Shown: piece by piece, positions 11,381 through 54,778 of the stretch
How the letters are laid out: each line of letters opens with the position of its first letter
Numbering within the stretch: position 1 is the first letter of the stretch
NCBI GenBank assembly: GCA_951406725.2
Contig: OX597814.1
Location: forward strand, 98,580,001 to 98,644,000
DNA: 64,000 nucleotides
From: Octopus vulgaris
Lineage: Eukaryota
Direction of reading: 5' to 3'
Notes under the pieces: generated by a model
Seen by the model: the letters and a program-made list of their open reading frames with translations, nothing else
What the model was told of the DNA's origin: nothing
Databases searched by the model: none
Program-made: the position numbers and the translations under genes

Positions 11381-13905
11381 TCAATATACTTCTAGCCATC
11401 GCTCATCGTCTCTTTTTAACCAAATCCAGTGGCTAGCCTTCTCCACTGTAGATTGGATATCAGTCATGGTGGTATTGACTTTACGATGAGTTAGGCCTAA
11501 CGATAACAACAGTCGTCTCACGCTGTGTCCTACAAACCCTCTACATCCGACTTCGATAGGAAAATGTTCCGCTTTCCAGCCTGCGTCTTCATATTCCTCG
11601 AGGAGGTTTTCATAACGGTTTCATTTTCGAGCTCGAGCGGCGTCCATATTATCTTCGTGAGGAACCGTTAGCTCGACTATATTTAAAACTTTCTTTCTTT
11701 CACACCACATCAAAATATCTGGTTTTTTCGAAACTGGGATGGGAAAGAAAACCTGGCACCCAGGTAAATCTGCAGTTACCTCCCAATAGTCGTTCCACTT
11801 TTCATTTTTCTCAGGAAGTTTCTTGGTCTTCTTCTTGAAACGGATCTGCTGACCTGGTCGCACGAAGGTAATGAACTCTCTTGATGGTACTTTTAACGAT
11901 TTTTCCTCAGTGTTGTTGAGATGAATTTGATTCTTTATAGCATTGAAGATAACCTTAAGGACCAAGTTGTGCCTCCATGTGTACCTGTTCAATGCTAACG
12001 AACAGTTGGAAAGAATATGTTTTAGTGTACCGACTTTTCCACATTTGCAGACGTCATTCTCTAAGACGTTCCATCTTACTAGATTCGTAGGTGATGGCAA
12101 AACATCATACGATGAACGAATCAGGAAACTCAGCCGAGATGTTGTCCACTTCCACATCTCATCCCAACTTATCTTCCTCTCAACAACATGTTCTTCCCAT
12201 CTCGTCATCTGACCTTGATGAACACATCGGATCAAATGAAGCTCTCTTCTCTCTGCTTCTCTTGTTTTGACGCTGTTGCTAACAACAGATCTGCGTTCAC
12301 ACGGCATCATGCTTGCAAACGGTCTGAACTGATCCGCGCCAAAACCAAATCCTTTCCGATGGTTCTGCGTTGCTCCCACCATATCTCTGTGTGTAAGAGA
12401 AGACAAGATGTTGTCAGTTTCTGCTTCTGCTTTCCACTTCCTGGCTGTTTTCACCTCTGGTGGGTTACGCCTGATTTCCATATCCTTCGATTCTCTCAGC
12501 ATCATGACCGTCCGTATCTTCCCCAACTTATATATTTCGACTATTGATGCTATTGGTAACTGCAACGAACCTCTTTTACGATAAAGAGCTGAGCTGTTCA
12601 ACATACGAGGTAGACCTAGCCACTTTCTAATGAACACATTACATTTTTGTTCGATCTTTTCAACTCGTGACAATGCTACTTCGTATATTAAAAGTGGCCA
12701 CGCAAGTCGCGGGTACAGGCCGAACTGCAAACACCAAATTTTATATTTACCTGGTAACTTCGAAACATCAATCGCTGATAACCCAGCCTCGGCCTGTTTC
12801 ATAATTTCAATCCCACGACTTCTATCTGACAATGTTCCAGCGTATACTCGTCCCAAGCTCTTGACGGGCTCTTCCTTGACTGTTGGAATGCTTTCTTCCG
12901 ATAATCGAAATTTAAATTCTTTCTGCACTCCCTTAACAAATGTCAGACTACGCGACTTTTTTGCTCTAAATCGCATCCTTGACCACCTTACACGTTCGTC
13001 TAATCTCAAAAGGGCATTCTGCATGATTTGTTTATCTGTAGCTAGAAGTGTCACGTCATCCATGAAGGCTTTCTTAGGCGATTGTACATGGGCGATTTGT
13101 TCCGAAAAATCTACACCTTTCAAAATCAACTCCATGACTAAGATAAACCACGTGACAGATATTGTACAGCCAGCAGCAATGCCAACCTCCAATCGGTGCC
13201 AATTTGTTGTAAAACTTCCAGTTGTAAACCTCATTTCGAAACTTTCATAGTACATCCTCATTATTTTGATCACTTTGTCAGGAATGTGGAAGTGGTCCAT
13301 GGCTGTTATTAGTAATTTGTGTGGCACTGAACCATACGCGTTAGCTAGGTCGAGCCATACCACGTTCAGACTTTTCTTGTTCTGTTTGGCATCCTGAATC
13401 GCTTTCCAAATCGAAAAAACAGTGTTCAACGCATCCAGGGATCCCGGGGATTCCGGCCTTTTGAACAGATTCATCAACATATCCGTTACTCTGTAAATAT
13501 GTCACTGTTCTCCTCGACAGAATTCCCATAAAGATCTTGCCTTCCACATTCAATAAGGATATCGGCCTAAACTGTTTTATGGTCTTTGCATTGGCCTCTT
13601 TCGGCAGGTATATACCTTCTGCCTTACACCAATCCTCTACTATAGTCTCCTCGCGCCACAGTTGTCGGATTAGGACGAAGAGCTTCTTTCGCAGACGATT
13701 GCAGTATTTGTAGACTTTATATGAGACGCCATCACCTCCTGGGGCACTCTTCGCTCTAGCTTTTCTTACGAAGTCATTCACCTCTCTCTCCCTGATGTCC
13801 CCAATCTGGAATTCGATATCAGGTCCTGAGAGATGATTTAGCCCATGTAGAGATGGCAGCGGCTGATTACGGTGCGGATCGCTGTAGGTTTCCTTGATAT
13901 GAGCC
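11381..13905 (-). pseudogene. HERO RT-RLE ORF with one frameshift (A6 run 13414-13419) and one internal TGA (11621-11623)
   Basis: Reading through the TGA gives NRYENLLEEYEDAGWKAEHFPIEVGCRGFVG...EKASHWIWLKRDDERWLEVY* ending at 11381. Confidence 0.85.
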
Positions 13906-34352: not shown

Positions 34353-34414
34353 AGTAGTTATGTATATATGTATATATATATAAGTAGTTATGTATATATG
34401 TATATATTCATATG

Positions 34415-34448
34415 TAGTAGTAAGTAGCTGTTGGAACAGAAAGACGTG
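34415..34448 (+). promoter_or_regulatory. Candidate internal Inr/DPE-type promoter of the LINE
   Basis: tagt followed by AGACGTG at 34442-34448, resembling the downstream element of jockey/I-type LINE promoters; spacing one base off canonical. Confidence 0.35.
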
Positions 34449-35647
34449 TAAGTGGCTGTTGGAACAGAATACATATGAACCCAACTTTACAATTTTCAAC
34501 TGAAAACTCAACTGAAAATTCTTCCTTCTCAAAAACGACAAAGCCTTAATTCCAGTGAAAGCTACGTTTTTGTATCGTGAACACGTATTATGAAAGATAT
34601 AATACTGTAACGATCATAATAATTATTCGTAAGTACACAATATTCCTATTAACAAACACACAATAGTTTACATTATCTCAGAACTATAACATATACCAGT
34701 ACTACTGTCTCCTACTGTTCAATACACCACAGAAGTTGATATTTTGAATATTTCTATCCTTAGTTGCCATTACCTATATTTATTACCTATATTTACTGTT
34801 ATTATCTATATTTCTTGTTGCACAAACAACTTGGTTAAGTGACCAACAACGAATCGAAGACACTGAAAAACAATAGGTAGCTCACAACAACAGTAACAAA
34901 AAAACACATCTCTAAATATCGCAACTGGTCGTACATTGAAGTGGAAACTTTCATTAACTCATGGTTCATTCTCTTTCAAACCGATAACATACATGCCTCA
35001 AACTTCAATTTCATTGCTAAAAGAGTTGGCCATCTCTTTAATAACCCTGCTTCATATCTCACTGTGAGAAACCTGTAATCACGTGGATAAACTAGCCCGA
35101 AATTTTTTACTCACCACAGCCCATTTAATGTTATTATCTATATTTTTTTGTTGCACAAACAACTTGGTTAAGTGATCAACAACGAATCGAAGACACTGAA
35201 AAACAATAAATAGTTCACAACAACAGCAACAGTAACAAATAAAAACACATCTTTAAATATTGCAACTGGTCATATATTGAAGTGGATACAACTACAACAT
35301 TCACATCAGCAGCTAAAAGAACTAATAGACCCGTCATTATCATCATCATCATTGTTTCCATCTTCTACTGCTACTTCCCCTTCTTCATCTTCTCTCCCCC
35401 TCCTCCTGCTACTACTCCTAGTGGCCAAAGCCAAACATTCCATTCTACCTCGCCAGTGACCCATCCCAACCACTCTTACTTTCTCCATATCCCACCACCA
35501 TAGCTCCACTAACAACTCAAGTACCATTGCTACTACTACTACTATCTCAGCCAGTGTACAAAATCAACCACTGCTCCTTCCCCCTCTCCATTCAAGTCAA
35601 ACAATTCTAAATCTCAAGCTATTCACAATCCACCGCCCACATAAACG

Positions 35648-37057
35648 ATGACGGGTAACGGAAATCCACGGACTGTCAGCTCAGAGAGCAACACTTGCCT
35701 GGCCACAGACATCATATTGAAAATCATCTCATCAACACAAAATCAAGATATAAAAAGTGTCTTGTCGAAATATGATATCAAACAGGAAAGTGGAGCAATA
35801 TACAAAAATATTTTCACCAACTGTAAGTTTACGATGTTAAAGAAAGCAGCAGCTTTCTTGAATGATGGTGTCCAAGTTGAGCTCACAAAACCAAACCTCA
35901 CCAACTGGATTATAGCAAGGATTGAAAACTTCCTCCCGGAGACTTGCAAAATGTGTGACAAACAGTACTGCATTACATTTGGCCAAAAACCAGCTTTGGC
36001 ATGCTTCATCTGTGGACAAGGAATACACGAAGCGTGCTACTTAAAAAAGATAAATAACCACATCATTCCAGATATTCTAGGCCTACACTGGCTATGCAGT
36101 TATTGTTCACCAAGGGCCACAATAACGAATGAACCTAGGACCCTACCACAGACAGGCCGTTCTAAACAGACATTGATTGGCGAAACTGACATGGCAAATA
36201 AATCCTGCCACACACAGGCCATCCAAGTGCCTCTTGTAAATGACAAGAATGAAGACAATGACATGCAAACACCTACAAAACAAGAAACAGGAGATCCTGC
36301 AGAAAAAGACCAAACTTCCCACGAAAAGAAACAGATCCAGAGCAAACGCTCAAATGAAGGAAGGCCAGTATGTATCCATTACAGGCGCAACAAGTGCAAA
36401 CATGGTCTTTCAGGTACAGGGTGCATGTACAGTCACCCCAAACCATGCAGACCATATATCAACTTCGGTACTGATCGAAAAAAAGGATGCCAAAATGGCC
36501 GAGAATGTGAACTCCTTCACCCAAAGATGTGCCGCAATTCGCTGAGAAAAAAAGAATGTTTTGGTAAGAATTGCAAATTTATGCACCGGAAGGGTACAAT
36601 TCGCATAAAAACTACTGAACCCACACCACCAGGACCAAGCTCAGCAGGGTATGAAAACCATTTCCCAAAAATGCGGAAACCAGGTCATGGCTCAGCAGGG
36701 TATGAAAACCATTTCCCAAAAATGCGGAACCCAGGTCATGGCTCAACAGTGAATGAAAATCATGCTACTCAATTGCATACATCAGCTGTAACAAACCCAA
36801 ACTCGCAGAAATTCGATATAGTAATGAATGAAAGCAGTTTTTTAGGCATAATCTACCAACTACAACAACAGCTGTACTCCATACAGACGACTCAGCAAAA
36901 CCAGGCAACATTGATACAAAGGCTGACACCTGGACTTACAGGGCACGTACAACAAATACAGACAGCCCAGCAGACCGAATATCCAGTCAGCACAGTCCCA
37001 GCAACTACAACAGTCTTGCCAACAATAGGGCAGATGTATCCGGTACAACAAGCATAA
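35648..37057 (+). CDS. LINE ORF1p with PHD-like finger and tandem CCCH-type fingers
   Basis: CKMC..CFIC..HEAC..WLCSYC; CIHYRRNKCKHG..CMYSH, CRPY..C..CELLH, CRNS..C..CKFMH; intact 469 aa. Confidence 0.85.
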   Translation: MTGNGNPRTVSSESNTCLATDIILKIISSTQNQDIKSVLSKYDIKQESGAIYKNIFTNCKFTMLKKAAAFLNDGVQVELTKPNLTNWIIARIENFLPETCKMCDKQYCITFGQKPALACFICGQGIHEACYLKKINNHIIPDILGLHWLCSYCSPRATITNEPRTLPQTGRSKQTLIGETDMANKSCHTQAIQVPLVNDKNEDNDMQTPTKQETGDPAEKDQTSHEKKQIQSKRSNEGRPVCIHYRRNKCKHGLSGTGCMYSHPKPCRPYINFGTDRKKGCQNGRECELLHPKMCRNSLRKKECFGKNCKFMHRKGTIRIKTTEPTPPGPSSAGYENHFPKMRKPGHGSAGYENHFPKMRNPGHGSTVNENHATQLHTSAVTNPNSQKFDIVMNESSFLGIIYQLQQQLYSIQTTQQNQATLIQRLTPGLTGHVQQIQTAQQTEYPVSTVPATTTVLPTIGQMYPVQQA

Positions 37058-40033
37058 TAACAGCAAATATCCAGGGTCTTTATCCGAAAACAAAACAGTG
37101 TAAAGTCCCTTTCTTGGAAGAATTAGCAACAGAAAACAACTCCAAAATAATTGGAATTACTGAAAATCATCTCAACGAAAACATCCGCAACAGCGAAATC
37201 ACAATCAATAGATTCAACATCTTCAGATGTGATAGACAAGGCAGATCCCATGGGGGCGTTATCATGTATATCCATGATACCTATGCATGCATAGAACTTG
37301 TCAATGAATCAAATGCCTACTGCAACCTACTGTGCATAAAAATCATCCAACTTAATACAGTTGTAACAATAATGTACAGACCGCCAAACAGCCCAACATT
37401 ATCCTTGACTGAGCCACTGACGAAGCTCCAACAAATTCTGGGAAACATGGCAAGTCCAATGCCTGACATTATCCTCCTTGGTGACTTCAACTTCCCTAAC
37501 ATCATCTGGCCACATGGACACATACTAAAACTGGGGACAAAAGCTGAACAAATACAGGCAGCCAAACTGTTGGAAGTCACAGAGAAATTATACCTCAAAC
37601 AAATGATGACAGAAGCAACAAGAAATAATAATACGATCGACTTGGTTTTCACCAACAACGAGGACACGCTATTTGACCTTCACTCAACCCCAACAATCCT
37701 TTCAGACCACAATATTATTGAAATGCATTTACACATTGGTAATGAGCCCAATGCCACAACTCTTAAACAAAAGGACATGCCAAAGCTATGCAGGTATGAT
37801 TATCACCAGGCAAATTGGGAAACTATTAACAACCAGTTACAAATCATTGACTGGGATCTCTACCTTACTGGGCCAGATAAACACAAGAAATTCTTAAACA
37901 AGATCGAAGAAATATGTGAAAAAAATGTTCCTCTAAAGAAAACCAAGTCCACAAAAAAACCTGTACCACGGGAGCGAAAGATCCTGATGCGCAAAAGGTC
38001 AAGACTAAGAAACAAAACATCTAAGCTGACATCAAAACATGAATTACAGAAAGTCCTTGACCAAATATACAGATTAGAAGACAATCTAAAACAACACTAT
38101 GATGAAGAACGTAACAATGCACAAAAGAAAGCCATAGAAAACATCAAGAAAAATCCAAAATGTTTCTACAGTTTTGCAAAGAAATACTCGAACACCAAGT
38201 CAACAATAGGACCTCTCCAGAGACAAAATGGGGATGTAGTGAATAACCCTATTGAAATGGCAGAAATGTTGGGTCAACAGTATGAAAGTGTCTTCAGTGA
38301 GCCATCTAAAACCATGAAGATCCATGACCCAGGAAAATTCTTCAAGGATATCGACCATACTAAACCTACCCTATCCGACATTGATTTCAACCCAGAAGAC
38401 ATAGCAAGAGCAATAGACAAGCTCTCCATGCACTCGGCTGCGGGGCCTGACGGTTTCAATGCCATGATACTTAAAAACTGCAAGGCACAATTGTCGAAAC
38501 CCCTTTACATGATATGGAGGGAATCTATGGAGAATGGCAAAATACCAAATACATATAAAGAAGCACACATAACTCCAATACATAAAGGGGATAGCAAATC
38601 AAAACCAAAGAACTACCGACCAATCTCACTGACATCACACATTATCAAGGTCTTCGAAAGAATAGTTCGTGGAAAACTGGTTGAGTTCCTGGAATCCAAC
38701 AATCTGATGAATTGCAACCAGCATGGATTCAGGTTAGGTAGATCATGCCTTTCCCAACTACTGGCACACCATGACCAAATCCTAGAAAATCTAGAGAATG
38801 GATACAACACAGATGTTATCTACCTCGACTTTGCCAAGGCATTTGACAATGTAGATCATGGCATCCTGGGTCACAAACTTCGAAAGCTAGGAGTAGGAGG
38901 AAAAGTTGGTACATGGATACACGAGTTCCTTACAAATAGAACTCAAACAGTCACTGTGAATGGAACCCATTCAACACCATCACCTGTGACCAGCAGTGTT
39001 CCTCAGGGTACAGTACTCGGCCCAATCCTGTTTCTCATCCTCATCTCTGACATAGATGAAGATACAACCAGCAACGTCTCATCCTTTGCTGATGACACCA
39101 GGGTCATGAGACAAATCAAAGACGAGGTGGATACAGAGGCCTTACAAAAGGACCTGACCACCATATATAAATGGCAGGAAACAAACAACATGTTGTTCAA
39201 TGATAAGAAGTTTGAACTAATTCGCTACGGAACAGATCAAGATCTGAAAAATACAACAAACTACAGAAACCCATCAGGACAACAAATAATGGAAAAACAG
39301 TATGTGAAAGATTTAGGCATCCACATGGGAACCAACCTAAAATTCAGAGAACACCTTGACTCAGTCTGTCTTACTGCAAGAAAGTACAGCGGGTGGATCT
39401 TGCGCACCTTCAAATCAAGAGATACCTCAACAATGAAAACCCTCTGGAACAGTATGATACTTCCGAGGATTGACTACTGTTCTCAGTTGTGGTCACCAAC
39501 AACAAAGGGCCAACTATCTAAGATAGAATCGCTCCAAAGAAATTTTACCTCATACTTCTCAGAAACGAGGGACCTGGACTATTGGCAAAGACTCAAAACC
39601 TTGAGGATGTACTCAATAGAAAGAAGATTTGAGCGTTACCGAATTATATACATTTGGAAAATGATAGAGCAGAAGGTGCCAAACTTTGGTATCAAAACCT
39701 ACCACTCACTGCGCCACGGAAGACGCTGCCAGCTGCCACCAATCAACAAAAAGGCTGGCCAGGCAGCAAAAACCCTGCGAGAATCAAGTCTGTTGGTTCG
39801 AGGAGCACAACTGTTCAACTCCATTCCGGTACATGTCAGGATGCAGTGTGGAATCATTCAAATTGCAACTGGATAGATACTTAAGCACCATTAGAGATGA
39901 ACCCCATCTCCCAGGATATACACAACGAGCACAAACTGACTCAAACTCGCTCCTACACATGTCAAATTTAAGCAGAGAATACAACCTGGCAACCACACCA
40001 GACTCTGAGGGTGGAGTCTTCGACTTGGCCTGA
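36832..40033 (+). CDS. LINE ORF2p (AP endonuclease + reverse transcriptase) with one late frameshift near 39835
   Basis: ANIQGL, GITENHL, YRPP, GDFN, IDLVF, SDH; YRPISLTS, QHGFR, LDFAKAFD, VPQGTVLGP, FADD; C-terminus continues MSGCSVESFKLQLDRYL in another frame. Confidence 0.9.
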
Positions 40034-40611
40034 GCATGGACTCAAACCCAAATGAAATGAAATGAAATGAAATGAAATGCACATATGTATATATATGTGT
40101 GTGTGTGGTGGGTGTATAAAGTATATGCCTGCATGACTGTATGTGTGTGATGTATATCCATTTAAGTGTATTCGAATTGTGACCGTAATGCAAATGGGCA
40201 CGGCAAATTGCGGGTTACCTGCTTTTTCCTTGCAGAAATTTCACTTTGTTTTGTTAATGTACTTAGCAAATATTTTCTGCCCTAAATATAAGATGTAACA
40301 CCATTGTCAAAATCATTGATTTGTCTTTTCAGTCGTTAAAAAATCAATCAATTTTAAAACTAACTTTTATCCTTTGTTATTGACTTTTTGATGTTTTATG
40401 ATCAATACCACGTGGTGTGTTTATGTTCAGTACCACGTAAGTCATTATATATACATACATACATACGTACATACATACATACATACATTCATACATACAT
40501 ACATACATACATACATACATACATACATACATACATACATACACACATACATACATACATACATACATACATACATACATACATACATACATGCATACAT
40601 ACATACATACA

Positions 40612-40679
<68 letters not shown>

Positions 40680-40804
40680 ACAGCTGTGTTGTATCGATCA
40701 CGAAACTTTGCAATAGATCCTTGAGTATTCAAATTCAAAAATTGTTTTATCCTATCACTACTAAATTTTGAATATAGGTTGTAAAATTGTTAACTAGCCA
40801 CCCA

Positions 40805-40896
<92 letters not shown>

Positions 40897-41962
40897 GAGG
40901 CCGAGGAAGGGCGAATGGCACTGTGAGTGTCGCGTTGCTCTCAAGCAACTATGCCGACCCGGTTCGACCTTGAGTGACTTCAACACAACCAAAGCATTCT
41001 ATAGGGAATTAGTGGAGGGGAGGTACGACGACAATCTTGGGGCGAACCTGGGCGTCGACGAGGAATACCTGACCCGCCTGTTTGAGAAGACCTTCGAGCC
41101 AGGACCCATGGACGACTTCCAGAGATCCCTGGCCTGGCAGTGCTACCGAGAAGCGCTACCCGTTCGGGATAAGCTCTATAGGCATGGCTCGAGAAACACG
41201 GGGCCGACCTGCCCGAGATGCGGTCAGAGCGACGAAATCGTTCTACACGCAATCGTGCAGTGTCCAACAATCTCCGACCTGTGGGCTTATGTCGAACGAC
41301 TACTGTCACGTGTGGGACGTGTCGGTTTATCAGCCGAGTCTATCGTTAATATCGACACGCCTCCTTCCTTCAAACGGGAAGGAAGAGCTATTTTTATCAT
41401 ACTTGTGGCTATGGCGAAAGAATGTATCTGGTGGACGCGTCTGAAAGGATTGAAGATAAACACTTTCCTCTCTGGTCAATCTCTCATCAACTTCTTCAAG
41501 TATCACTTGAAAAGGAAAGTGAGAGTAGAGAGGCAAGTTTTGTCTAGTGAATGTTTTAAAAAAAGAAGGGTGAATGTAGCAAGGATGGCATGTATGAATG
41601 ACGAAGCCACCTTGACTATGATCCTATGAACCGTAAAACTTAATACAGAGAGTTGCTTATTTGTAAAAAAAATATAACAAGTGACTTCATTGACCGAGGT
41701 TACCGTGGTCTTTTCCGTAGGCTTTTCTTTCCACAGGTAAACCTAACCTGTCTTCCCCTTTACACTTTACATTGACATTTCTGTGATAACGATCCCTATT
41801 GATCGATTTCTTCTTTTTCTTTTTTTTTTTTGCTTTTCTCTTTCTTTCCATTTACGATCCCTTTTGATCGAAAACCAACCCACCTTTTTTATCTCCAAAA
41901 AGAAAAGCTCTAACTTGTAATTTGTCCCGTCTGTGTGCAGCCCTGTGTGGCTAATAAAGAAA
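40897..41962 (+). mobile_element. Tx1/L1-clade LINE 3' fragment (zinc finger, T-rich 3' UTR) within (TATC)n
   Basis: LAWQCYREALPVRDKL..CPRC..E...HAIVQC....LW; stop 41629; ends ctaataaagaaa; TATC repeats on both sides. Confidence 0.85.
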
Positions 41963-44832: not shown

Positions 44833-46150
44833 TTAATATTGGACGAGATGCCATATAATTTAACAAGAATTGATGAGATTTGATCATTAGAATATCCCGT
44901 TTGTTAGAAATGTAATAGATATTAATGGTTAAACATATCGTTTTAATTCTAACACATTTTCTGGCTATATTCTTATTTCCTTGTCTGTCGTTAGTAAAGA
45001 CAAGTGTCATTTGGTATGTGATTTTGTTTTATTTAGTTCCACTGGTAGTGTACACAGCAGGACGTAGCCTATTGTGTGCGCGGCATGCTATTGAAGCCAT
45101 CTTTATTTTAGCTAAAGGTTGTAAAGTCTCAGTTTCCGTGACGTTGTAATTCATGTTTGCTTTAAAGGCAGAGATTTTAAGTTCCTCTAGTTCACACTTC
45201 GGTCTTAAGTAGGTCGACGCCTTGTGAATCAGAAGCTGTGATGACAAAGTTGCTGCGACCAATTGCCATGTGTAGCAAACAGTTTGCTCTGTGGATCTCT
45301 ATATACTTTAATAGCAAAGTTGTAAGCAAAATTTTACCAAACTATAATAGTTCCTATGACAAAAAGAAAAATATTGAATTTCTTGTCCAATGAAATATTG
45401 TAACATTTTATAGAGTAATAATAAAATCTATAATTTATGAGTACTTGATTAACCGTATCGCTTACACTCTTAGACGACATTGGCTTTTCTCTAGAACAAA
45501 TAATAATTAGTGCATACTTTTTCATAATAAGTTAGGTAAGTGACAAAATGCATCAAACCGAAGGTGTAAATGATGGAGGAAGTTCCGGAGAGTTACTGAT
45601 AAAGAGGATTGAAATACTAAAGATTTTTTACAGCGTAGTCATGTATAGCAGTCCATGGAAAAACAGTAAGCCTTTCGTTAGATGATCTGTTACTATAAAG
45701 CTGTGCAACTTACCTATTTTCAAGGTGCATATTCTGAATGATTAATCACGAAATAAATATCCGAGTATGAAGACCCTTTCCAACTCTCATGATACATACA
45801 TACATACATTCAATATATATATATATATATGTGTGTGTATGTGTGTGTACACACACATATACGCACACACATATATACCCACACACATGCACACACACAC
45901 ACATACGCACATACATGCACGCATGCACACGCGCACACCTACACGCATACACACACACACACGCACGTACACATACATACATACACACACGCATACATAC
46001 ACCCATACACATACATGCATCCTACACACACATACATACACACTCACACATACATACACACACACGCACTCACTCACACACCTGTATGTTCGCGCACACA
46101 CATGCACATACACACACTTCCCCACACCCACACGTACATACATACACACT

Positions 46151-46181
<31 letters not shown>

Positions 46182-47045
46182 GGACATACATCTATGCACA
46201 CACATATATACACACATACTCACATACATTCATCGGACACACTGCCACCCAGACATACACACAGACACACTCACACATCCACACACACACATACGTACGC
46301 GCATACTCGCAGGCGCGCGCACACACGCGCTTGCGCTGGTTCGCGCACGCATGCGCGCCGCATGCACCGCGCCCTTGGACCCGACGAGACCTCCCGCCCG
46401 TTCCTGGGATGTCGCTTGTCGTTGGGTTTTCCCACGCCCGTCTCCGCGGGACCACTCTTCCATCTTCCCCTCCGCTGGAGTCCTTTTCCTAAACCCCCCT
46501 TTTTTCGTTACACACACGCGCACACATATACACACATTGCTTAAACATATACATTACTCTTACACACATTCAATCTACTCGCCACTAATACTACCACGAC
46601 ACTGGACACACACACACACTACTACTCAACACACGCTGGCACGCTACATACGCCCCCACCCCTTCCCCTCCCTCCCTTCCTCCTTCCTCCCTTTTCTTAC
46701 TACTGACCTTTGTCTGCTATGCTGCTGCTATGCTGACCACCGTCTCGCCCTACCTCACACGCCTACACACAGACGCACACACTAACACATACATATATTT
46801 TTTGTTTTTTTACCTCGCCTCACACACACACATACACACACGCACACGCACACACTCACACATACACACACACCTGTCGCGTTACCAACCTTGTCTCCAC
46901 TCTTTTGCCTTTAAAAACCCACTTTGCTCTTGTTATCGTAAACATCCGCCTTTCACCATGTGCTACTCCTAACACCAGTCGTTTTTTCTCTATCTCCGTT
47001 GCCCGCTCCGGGATCTTTCTTTCCTCTCTCTTCCTTCTTTATGTT

Positions 47046-53168: not shown

Positions 53169-54778
53169 TGGCGGCCAAAATGTTCAGAACGGCATTGTTT
53201 TCGTTAGAAAAGTAAGTATAAGTTTTTATCAAAGTAGTTTTATATTCTATAATTTTCACAGACAATAAATACAATATTAGTTGTTATTGTCTGTGATTTC
53301 GGTGTAATTTGAGAGGATAATATAAAAGTTATAGATGATTTAGTGATTTACTGCAAAACCCATGGCGGCCAAAATGATCAGAACGGTTGAAAAATAACAA
53401 AATAATCAAAAATGACAGAGAATACTGGAATTATTTAATATTTAGTGTGAAGCCCTTTAGCTTCAATCACACTCTGACATCTTCGACTGCATGAGGAAAT
53501 TAAATTTTCAATTTCTTGCTGGGTGATCTTATTCCATTCTTCCTGAAGGGCATTCCATAATTGCTCAGTTGTTTTAGGATTTCTGGCTTTCAAACGTTCT
53601 CCTAGAATATTCCATACATTTTCAATAGGATTGAGATCTGGGCTTTGAGCAGGCCAATCCATAACAATAACCTTTTCAGCCTTGAGGAAGTTCATGACCA
53701 CCTTAGCCTTGTGACATGGGGCATTGTCCTGCATGAATATGGGTGGTCGCTTAGTTGAATTTCTCAGCACAGGCAAGACATGATCTTTTGCAAATTGTTT
53801 ATAAACTCCTGCATTTACCTTTTCATGTAATCGCACCAAAGGGCCCACACCATCTCCAGATATCATCTCCCAAACTATGACGCTTCCTCCACCGAATTTA
53901 ACAGTAGTCTTAAGGCATTTAGGCAACAATTTGTCACCTACTTTTCTACGAACGTACCTTTTCCCATCTGAGCCAAATAACATAAACTTAGATTCATCAC
54001 TGAAATGCACCGTTTGCCATTTTTCTTGAGACCACAACACATGTTCTGTTGCAAAGGTAAGACGACACTTTTTATTCCTGGAGCTGATCAGTGGCTTCAC
54101 TGCAGGTGCTCTTGCTTGTAGGTCATGTTCAACTAAACGATGAGACACAGTTTTTCGAGATAAAGTTTTCCTCAATACAATGCTCATTTTCCGAGAAACA
54201 GCAGCAGCAGTTTTAAATCTGTCCTTTTTAACCAACTTTACCATAGCACGATCTTCTCTCTTGGTCGTTTTTCTTGGCCTACCTGTAAACTTTCCACAAT
54301 CATCGTAGACCTTAAGGATACCGTGTACAACACTTTTTGACTTGTTAACAATCTTTGCAATAGATCCAATACTTAAATTATCCTTCCTTCGAAGCTTAAT
54401 AATCTGCTGACGAATTGGTAACGGAGTAAGTGGCATTATATTAAGAAAGTACACTGCAAATATTTTTACTAATGTTTAGTAAACGAACCGTCACGTAAAC
54501 AAATTCAAAACATTAGAGTTCGCCGGTTAAATATACTAAAACACGGAGTAAAAGCAACCGTTCTGATAATTTTGGCCGCCATGGGTTTTGCAGTAAATCA
54601 CTAAATCATCCATAACTTTTGTATTATCCTCTCAAATTACACCAAAGTCTCAGGCAATAACAAATAATATCGTATTTATTGTCTGTGAAAATTATAGAAT
54701 ACAAAACAACTTTGATAAAAAATTATATCTACTTTACTGACGAAAACAATGCTGTTCTGAACATTTTGGCCGCCACTG
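53166..54778 (-). mobile_element. Full-length Tc1-family transposon with about 225-bp IR/DR ends, in (TA)n
   Basis: TA-cagtggcggccaaaatgttcagaac ... gttctgaacattttggccgccactg-TA; inner repeats at about 53363-53389 and 54555-54582. Confidence 0.93.
53435..54436 (-). CDS. Tc1 DD34E transposase, uninterrupted ORF
   Basis: GRPRKTT, FSDESKF, QDNAPCH, WPAQSPDLNPIENVW; 34 residues between the second D and E; likely start MPLTP. Confidence 0.9.
   Translation of the reverse strand: MPLTPLPIRQQIIKLRRKDNLSIGSIAKIVNKSKSVVHGILKVYDDCGKFTGRPRKTTKREDRAMVKLVKKDRFKTAAAVSRKMSIVLRKTLSRKTVSHRLVEHDLQARAPAVKPLISSRNKKCRLTFATEHVLWSQEKWQTVHFSDESKFMLFGSDGKRYVRRKVGDKLLPKCLKTTVKFGGGSVIVWEMISGDGVGPLVRLHEKVNAGVYKQFAKDHVLPVLRNSTKRPPIFMQDNAPCHKAKVVMNFLKAEKVIVMDWPAQSPDLNPIENVWNILGERLKARNPKTTEQLWNALQEEWNKITQQEIENLISSCSRRCQSVIEAKGLHTKY

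Follow-up and report, generated by a model that had tools for sequence, protein, structure and literature searches.

Programmed −1 ribosomal frameshifting very probably joins the two open reading frames (ORFs) of a long interspersed nuclear element (LINE) located in the 64,000-nucleotide (nt) stretch of the Octopus vulgaris genome analysed here (contig OX597814.1; hereafter the window). Sequence comparison places the shift at U_UUU_UUA, written T_TTT_TTA in the DNA, near the point at which ORF2 opens within ORF1 in the −1 frame. The heptamer, its phase, its conservation and the open, mostly Met-free −1 frame leading to the endonuclease are direct observations. The original prediction had proposed an ORF1–ORF2 fusion made by this mechanism, and comparison with relatives of the element supports it. 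The junction comprises the following features, all on the forward (+) strand.

35648..37057 (+), ORF1, 469 amino acids (aa), with a PHD finger, three CCCH-type fingers, a helix led by Phe-Leu and a Q/P/T-rich tail
36829..36831 (+), last −1-frame stop (TGA) ahead of the heptamer
36838..36844 (+), T_TTT_TTA, the slippery heptamer and predicted −1 shift site, in phase with ORF1 (Ser-Phe-Leu)
36838..37065 (+), doubly coded overlap: 72-codon ORF1 tail and 76-codon T/S/N-rich −1 linker without Met, leading into the endonuclease
36872..36886 (+), weak ctgta/tacag hairpin 27 nt 3′ of the heptamer, a candidate only (z −0.03; z −0.56)
37055..37057 (+), ORF1 stop TAA, with the endonuclease Asn codon (37066) 11 nt downstream
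37057..37719 (+), APE endonuclease domain of ORF2 (Pfam Exo_endo_phos E 7.8e-7, Exo_endo_phos_2 E 4.6e-13)
37264..37266 (+), first ORF2-frame ATG, within the endonuclease
38584..39246 (+), reverse transcriptase (RT) domain of ORF2 (Pfam RVT_1 E 1.5e-30)

The predicted coordinates of the junction were confirmed. The ORF2 frame (36832–39876) is −1 relative to ORF1 and opens after the TGA, overlapping ORF1 by 226 nt. The ORF1 frame (35645–37057, ATG at 35648, stop TAA at 37055–57) reads AGT TTT TTA GGC two codons past this TGA, placing the heptamer in the X_XXY_YYZ phase. The first ORF2-frame ATG lies downstream of the endonuclease motif ANIQGL, again as predicted. By contrast, ITENH, which had been named alongside as a second APE motif, is private to the window copy: position 37166 is G in 29/29 other copies, giving ITESH. 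For the window by itself, the open overlap is not significant, a stop-free −1 frame having a probability of 0.59 given the ORF1 peptide. Upstream of the TGA, the ORF1 tail also holds three further in-phase X_XXY_YYZ matches, two of C_CCA_AAA and one of C_CCA_AAC. On its own the window proves little; support for the frameshift site comes from the comparative set, which is decisive.

The 2.8-Gb host genome contains 40 matches to the window LINE at 97–100% identity. We retrieved 30 of these for comparison, 29 of which cover the heptamer, and found it intact in 28/29. From the heptamer to the APE domain, the −1 frame is stop-free and in register in 23/29 copies and contains an in-frame ATG in only 1/29; the family therefore has no AUG in the overlap, in agreement with the original prediction. 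These copies are too young for their conservation to be informative about selection.

To reach distant relatives, we used an alignment of 11 ORF1 proteins as query, in all of which (11/11) Phe-Leu is invariant, follows a linker of variable length and starts a predicted amphipathic stretch. We identified 24 metagenome loci with a related PHD and CCCH ORF1 (24–47% ORF1 identity). An in-phase slippery heptamer stands at the start of the −1 overlap in 20 of the 21 loci that cover the site, as T_TTT_TTA in 17, G_GAT_TTT in two (L093 and L100) and G_GTT_TTT in one (L094). Of the other four loci, L098 and L101 lack the site through deletion, L099 stops short of it, and L104 has A_TTT_TTA in a broken copy. 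In L089, G_GAT_TTT and T_TTT_TTA overlap, a possible intermediate between heptamer types. Three further families in the host genome, with 29–38% endonuclease identity to the window element, have a heptamer at the same place: A_AAT_TTT in 28/30 copies of family 2, T_TTT_TTA followed by C in 32/38 located copies of family 3 (39 examined) and T_TTT_TTG in 10/25 copies of family 4, sampled by rank against a T5 query. Conservation of heptamer and phase, the check originally proposed for family copies and related LINEs, extends to distant lineages.

The statistics draw on 22 loci, namely 18 from metagenomes, the window element and a single copy from each further host family. L084 and L088 were excluded as duplicates, the near-duplicate pairs being L081/L084, L087/L088 and L094/L100; L098, L099, L101 and L104, which have no intact site, were excluded too. 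Endonuclease identities are 28–74% among 16 of the 22 loci. In a tree with five distant ORF2s (~30% identical) as outgroup, 17 heptamer-bearing elements form one clade (100/100) with deep branches. An ORF1 profile search returned 2,650 clusters (50% identity) at E ≤ 1e-10. A scan of viral contigs with the ORF1 alignment gave 10 pattern matches, none confirmed. Homologues of the ORF2 protein are uninformative on the linker because gene callers trimmed them to the first start codon. In 70/119 the motif search missed the first APE motif, mostly because the protein starts inside or past it, and a minority have a Met 1–4 residues ahead of the motif.

The heptamer is conserved beyond the needs of the protein. 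T_TTT_TTA encodes 17/19 Phe-Leu pairs at the site position but 0/60 of the other in-frame Phe-Leu pairs of the same elements, whose codon usage is P(TTT|F) 0.45, P(TTA|L) 0.11 and P(third base T) 0.26; U-type heptamers occur at 31/17,088 background positions. In L094, L100 and host family 2, Phe-Leu has been lost, yet a slippery heptamer is retained. The −1 frame is likewise distinctive. It contains 0 stops in 1,970 codons downstream of the site, compared with 482/6,377 upstream and with 134/1,970 for the +1 frame downstream, and 48 −1 stops would be expected over 20 loci given the ORF1 tail peptides. Between the heptamer and the APE motif, 13/20 endonuclease-reaching loci have no Met. Protein sequences give secondary support. 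Of 143 new ORF1 homologue clusters, 11 lack a readable CCCH end and 7 lack Phe-Leu. Phe-Leu is present in 125 of the 132 readable tails, and in 124/125 the residue just ahead of it has codons ending in U, compared with 74% for the linker background. This test is biased, the ORF1 profile having contained Phe-Leu, and S, D, N, T and P are also typical helix-capping residues.

RNA folding was predicted for the sequence just 3′ of the site. The 50 nt that follow it fold with a mean z of −1.66, compared with about −0.5 to +0.4 for windows that exclude the start of this stretch, and positions +4 to +54 beat a same-peptide, synonymous-codon null in 14/22 loci, compared with 3/21 in each of two control windows. 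The predicted stems mostly start 6–10 nt past the heptamer, with a C-rich 5′ arm and a variable 3′ partner, and are confined to one 11-member sub-clade of the 17-locus tree. In four of five near-full-length metagenome loci (L082, L086, L087 and L103), the stretch directly following the heptamer has its best or second-best predicted pairing partner in the final 200-nt block of the contig, out of 14–17 blocks. This pairing was not seen in L095 or the window family and is ambiguous in host family 2; predicted and bulged, it is only a hint.

Several observations weigh against frameshifting or temper the evidence for it. An in-frame Met precedes the APE motif in 7/20 loci, including host families 3 and 4, and 15/25 family 4 copies, in the query-biased sample, have a T5 run. 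The heptamer-bearing loci are related and hence not independent events. Wherever both were located, the ORF1 stop lies 2–86 nt upstream of the APE motif, as reinitiation would also predict.

Structure predictions also count against the reading. As originally noted, the window family has no canonical stimulator: no local stem is predicted (z −0.56 and −0.03). The ctgta/tacag hairpin that had been pointed out is present, and the 146 nt 3′ of the site fold no more stably than shuffled sequences (z −0.03). Stems are equally missing from five other basal lineages of the tree (L081, L102 and the three other host families), and 13 aligned loci contain no shared covarying structure (0 pairs; the row of L090 is one base off). 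The window family site has no predicted pairing to its own 3′ end (ranks 6 and 11 of 14 blocks), its best long-range duplexes being scattered through ORF2. As read from these predictions, the window site would act like a signal of the retroviral gag–pol type but is not a complete two-part one, having the heptamer without a stem 5–9 nt downstream.

Among other explanations, termination and reinitiation near the ORF1 stop, at a non-AUG codon or a nearby AUG, would make the ORF2 protein (ORF2p) and leave the heptamer incidental or a second route; such a mode has been put forward for L1 and demonstrated for SART1. We consider this unlikely, although the short distance from ORF1 stop to APE motif (11 nt in the window) fits it. 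The window junction reads GCA TAA TAA CAG, with ATA ATA at 37054–59 in the ORF2 frame overlapping the ORF1 stop; a Met lies near the APE domain in L086, L092, L096 and host family 4, and PMC5009743 describes L1 initiation as independent of the AUG present. Moreover, the openness of the ORF1 frame up to the APE domain exceeds what the linker peptides would give (over 20 loci, 32 stops expected, a partly circular figure), perhaps because the Q/P-rich tail has a function or because reinitiation runs in parallel. Reinitiation does not, however, predict a −1 frame that is open from a conserved heptamer 45–223 codons upstream of the APE domain, nor the codon bias at the site, nor the stems 3′ of it, and the overlapping UAAUG of SART1-type stop–start coupling is absent at the window ORF1 stop. 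Reinitiation is possible as a route parallel to frameshifting.

It is more doubtful still that TTTTTTAG serves as a 3′ splice acceptor joining upstream ORF1 sequence to the ORF2 frame. The base after the heptamer is G in 16/17 T6A loci, L094 and L100 read TTTTCAG, and an automated gene model, P0002, apparently joins ORF1 to the ORF2 frame here. This public model, a prediction named 'fission process 1', consists of ORF1 of this LINE joined to ORF2, apparently through a predicted intron ending at the AG of the heptamer, and is probably a mis-annotation. Against splicing as a general route, AG right after the site is absent in 4/22 loci, namely L093 and host families 2, 3 and 4, all three of which keep the heptamer (TTTTTTAC, TTTTTTGT, AAATTTTG). 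C never replaces T in 17/17 T6A sites, although both an acceptor and the Phe-Leu peptide would permit it, and 0/29 site-covering genomic copies are joined there. Contigs of four runs guessed to be RNA (status unrecorded), which cannot reveal strand, level or rare splice forms, cross the site unjoined, their sole joint being the 51-nt repeat in ORF1. Slippage of RNA polymerase on T6, adding one U so that ORF1 and ORF2 share a frame in a minority of transcripts, is about as improbable as splicing. Run-length variants do exist among genomic copies (an in-frame T7 fusion in L120, T5 in L131 and host family 4), but G_GAT_TTT, G_GTT_TTT and A_AAT_TTT have shorter T runs and yet keep the tandem-slippage form and phase, and stems 6–10 nt downstream suit a ribosome. 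Slipped RNAs would also be copied into new insertions, yet T7 occurs in 0/29 window-family copies. Least probable of all is that the heptamer is a by-product of the invariant Phe-Leu that opens the ORF1 helix, with no role in recoding: the codon control contradicts it, and a slippery heptamer persists where Phe-Leu has been lost.

Under the preferred reading, −1 frameshifting, most ribosomes would read through U_UUU_UUA and stop at 37055, giving the 469-aa ORF1 protein (ORF1p). A minority would slip back one base at 36838–44 after 399 ORF1 codons (ending SSFL) by tandem slippage and continue into RHNLPTTT..., a 76-residue linker, the APE domain and the RT. In copies lacking the 3′ gap described below, the fusion would reach ~1,470 aa, keeping the PHD and CCCH fingers and replacing the ORF1 helix and tail. 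In one sub-clade the predicted stem 6–10 nt downstream would stimulate the shift; in the window family, where no stimulator was found, shifting would be inefficient and depend on the heptamer only, or would draw on some further element. As with Gag–Pol, ORF2p would then be scarce relative to ORF1p.

Such a signal has a close retroviral parallel: according to PMC5009743, U_UUU_UUA is the HIV-1 gag–pol −1 frameshift site. The window heptamer is identical, has the same phase and is likewise followed by G; in both systems an RNA-binding structural ORF lies upstream with the RT in the −1 frame, and a 3′ stem is predicted in many relatives of the LINE. Unlike HIV-1, the LINE is an element devoid of long terminal repeats (non-LTR) with an APE domain and no protease, has an overlap of 44–214 codons that ends in a Q/P-rich ORF1 tail, is stemless in the window family and is known here from sequence alone. 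The same review gives G_GAU_UUU as the shift site of an umbravirus, pea enation mosaic virus, a viral context; this heptamer is found in L093 and L100 and, overlapping T_TTT_TTA, in L089. It also refers to frameshifting inside the gag gene of HeT-A and, for ORF2 of mammalian LINEs, to a novel kind of initiation.

Cardioviruses use G_GUU_UUU, the heptamer of L094.

Among LINEs such a route has seldom been invoked. The original prediction held that studied LINEs (SART1, L1) use coupling or reinitiation; this stands, but a −1 shift in a LINE has a precedent. The review PMC5911963 states that ORF2 of the Dictyostelium elements TRE5-A and TRE3-A, L1-clade non-LTR elements of the APE type, requires a −1 frameshift. 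They belong to another clade and host, and the passage on them names no slippery site, stimulator or experiment, whereas the present comparison follows a single heptamer through a large lineage. For SART1, PMC3894237 and PMC5972666 describe UAAUG translational coupling and call ORF2 initiation in LINEs an open question. As in SART1 and L1, little ORF2p is needed from a two-ORF LINE RNA and the ORF1 stop lies near the APE start; unlike in those elements, the window has neither UAAUG nor a spacer, its ORFs overlap by 226 nt and no ORF2 AUG precedes the APE domain. For Paramecium elements, +1 frameshifting or reinitiation has been suggested (PMC5405496). PMC4120745 reports a PHD finger in ORF1 of CR1- and L2-lineage Jockey-superfamily elements, but its table of ORF1 types contains no PHD and CCCH type and its main text uses 'CCCH' and 'frameshift' 0 times. 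LINE frameshifting is absent from the portions consulted of PMC2881922, PMC1965478, PMC4700185 and PMC3905857. No account of a slippery site conserved among LINEs turned up in a literature search, with subscription papers and Repbase reports outside it.

The window element as a whole is an APE-type non-LTR retrotransposon, with an ORF2 containing APE and RT domains, an upstream ORF1, a 3′ simple-repeat tail and dispersed, 5′-truncated copies. By motif resemblance it may be CR1-like. Its further features, also on the + strand, are as follows.

34420..40080 (+), LINE copy of ~5.7 kb, almost full length, with an approximate 5′ end (sister-copy alignment, genome matches)
34791..35289 (+), internal duplication in the long 5′ leader, 34791–34948 resembling 35123–35289 (80–90% cross-matches, sister copies)
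35945..36106 (+), PHD finger of ORF1 (Pfam PHD E 0.039 in the window copy, below cut-off)
36371..36586 (+), three CCCH-type zinc fingers of ORF1 (Cys/His invariant in 11/11 ORF1s)
36639..36740 (+), 51-nt tandem duplication in the ORF1 linker, of variable copy number (sequence; one contig skips 36638–36690)
39836 (+), 11-nt gap private to the window copy (8/8 sister copies have 11 extra bases)
40050..40079 (+), (AAATG)n repeats of the 3′ tail

The four longest sister copies align from 34388–34522 to 40067–40078 at 96.7–99.2% identity. The leader upstream of ORF1 measures ~1.2 kb, including the internal duplication of ~160 nt, and has no ATG from 35151 to 35647. The PHD finger is backed by homologue P0012 (Pfam PHD E 1.7e-5), and its Cys/His residues are invariant in 11/11 ORF1s; the CCCH fingers are matched in homologue P0015 (Pfam zf-CCCH E 2.1e-5) and in an Atlas cluster with zf-CCCH on 10% of its members. 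Database proteins labelled Octopus vulgaris are 90–99% identical to the window ORF1. Owing to the 11-nt gap, ORF2 of the window copy is shortened and ends early, at 39876.

The other host families differ in several respects. Family 2 (L061–L080) apparently has an ORF1 with a different N-terminus and the first CCCH finger only, keeps the −1 overlap with A_AAT_TTT and ends in an (AAGAGT)n tail. In two single copies of family 3, L117 (G000:C8:68145500-68151000) and L120, a small indel in the T run joins the ORF1 and ORF2 frames, with a 1,439-aa open frame in L117; they indicate how large a fusion would be, each being a single mutation. Family 4 (L145–L169) occurs in T6G and T5G forms, is high-copy (2,001 candidates) and has an ATG three codons ahead of the APE motif. 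Its T5 subfamily may be spreading non-autonomously.

Elsewhere in the window, we noted a 626-aa frame with an RT domain, a fragment of another retroelement (11621–13501, − strand), a 283-aa zf-RVT frame belonging to the 3′ part of another LINE (40778–41629, +), and a 346-aa Tc1/mariner-type transposase frame (HTH_Tnp_Tc3_2, DDE_3; 53435–54475, −). Frames of 257 and 330 aa overlap at 45771–46785 (+); the 330-aa frame, the one covered by the scan, has no Pfam match.

Taken across its relatives, a very large LINE lineage, represented by the 2,650 ORF1 clusters, probably follows the Gag–Pol strategy through a conserved U_UUU_UUA, placing PHD and CCCH fingers on its endonuclease–RT. Stimulators would differ between sub-lineages, being a local stem, possibly a pairing with the far 3′ end, or none in cis, with ORF1p or a host factor perhaps acting instead. 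If so, this lineage solves the translation of ORF2 in the retroviral way, through one defined, mutable 7-nt site, and current annotations mistreat the junction as a broken frame, an intron (as in P0002) or an N-terminally truncated ORF2. The natural series of heptamers and stems provides a new panel of candidate cellular −1 signals. The active protein would then be the ORF1–ORF2 fusion, in which PHD fingers of a chromatin-reading type and CCCH fingers of an RNA-binding type are tethered to the endonuclease–RT, and this tethering would bear on cis-preference and on the choice of target.

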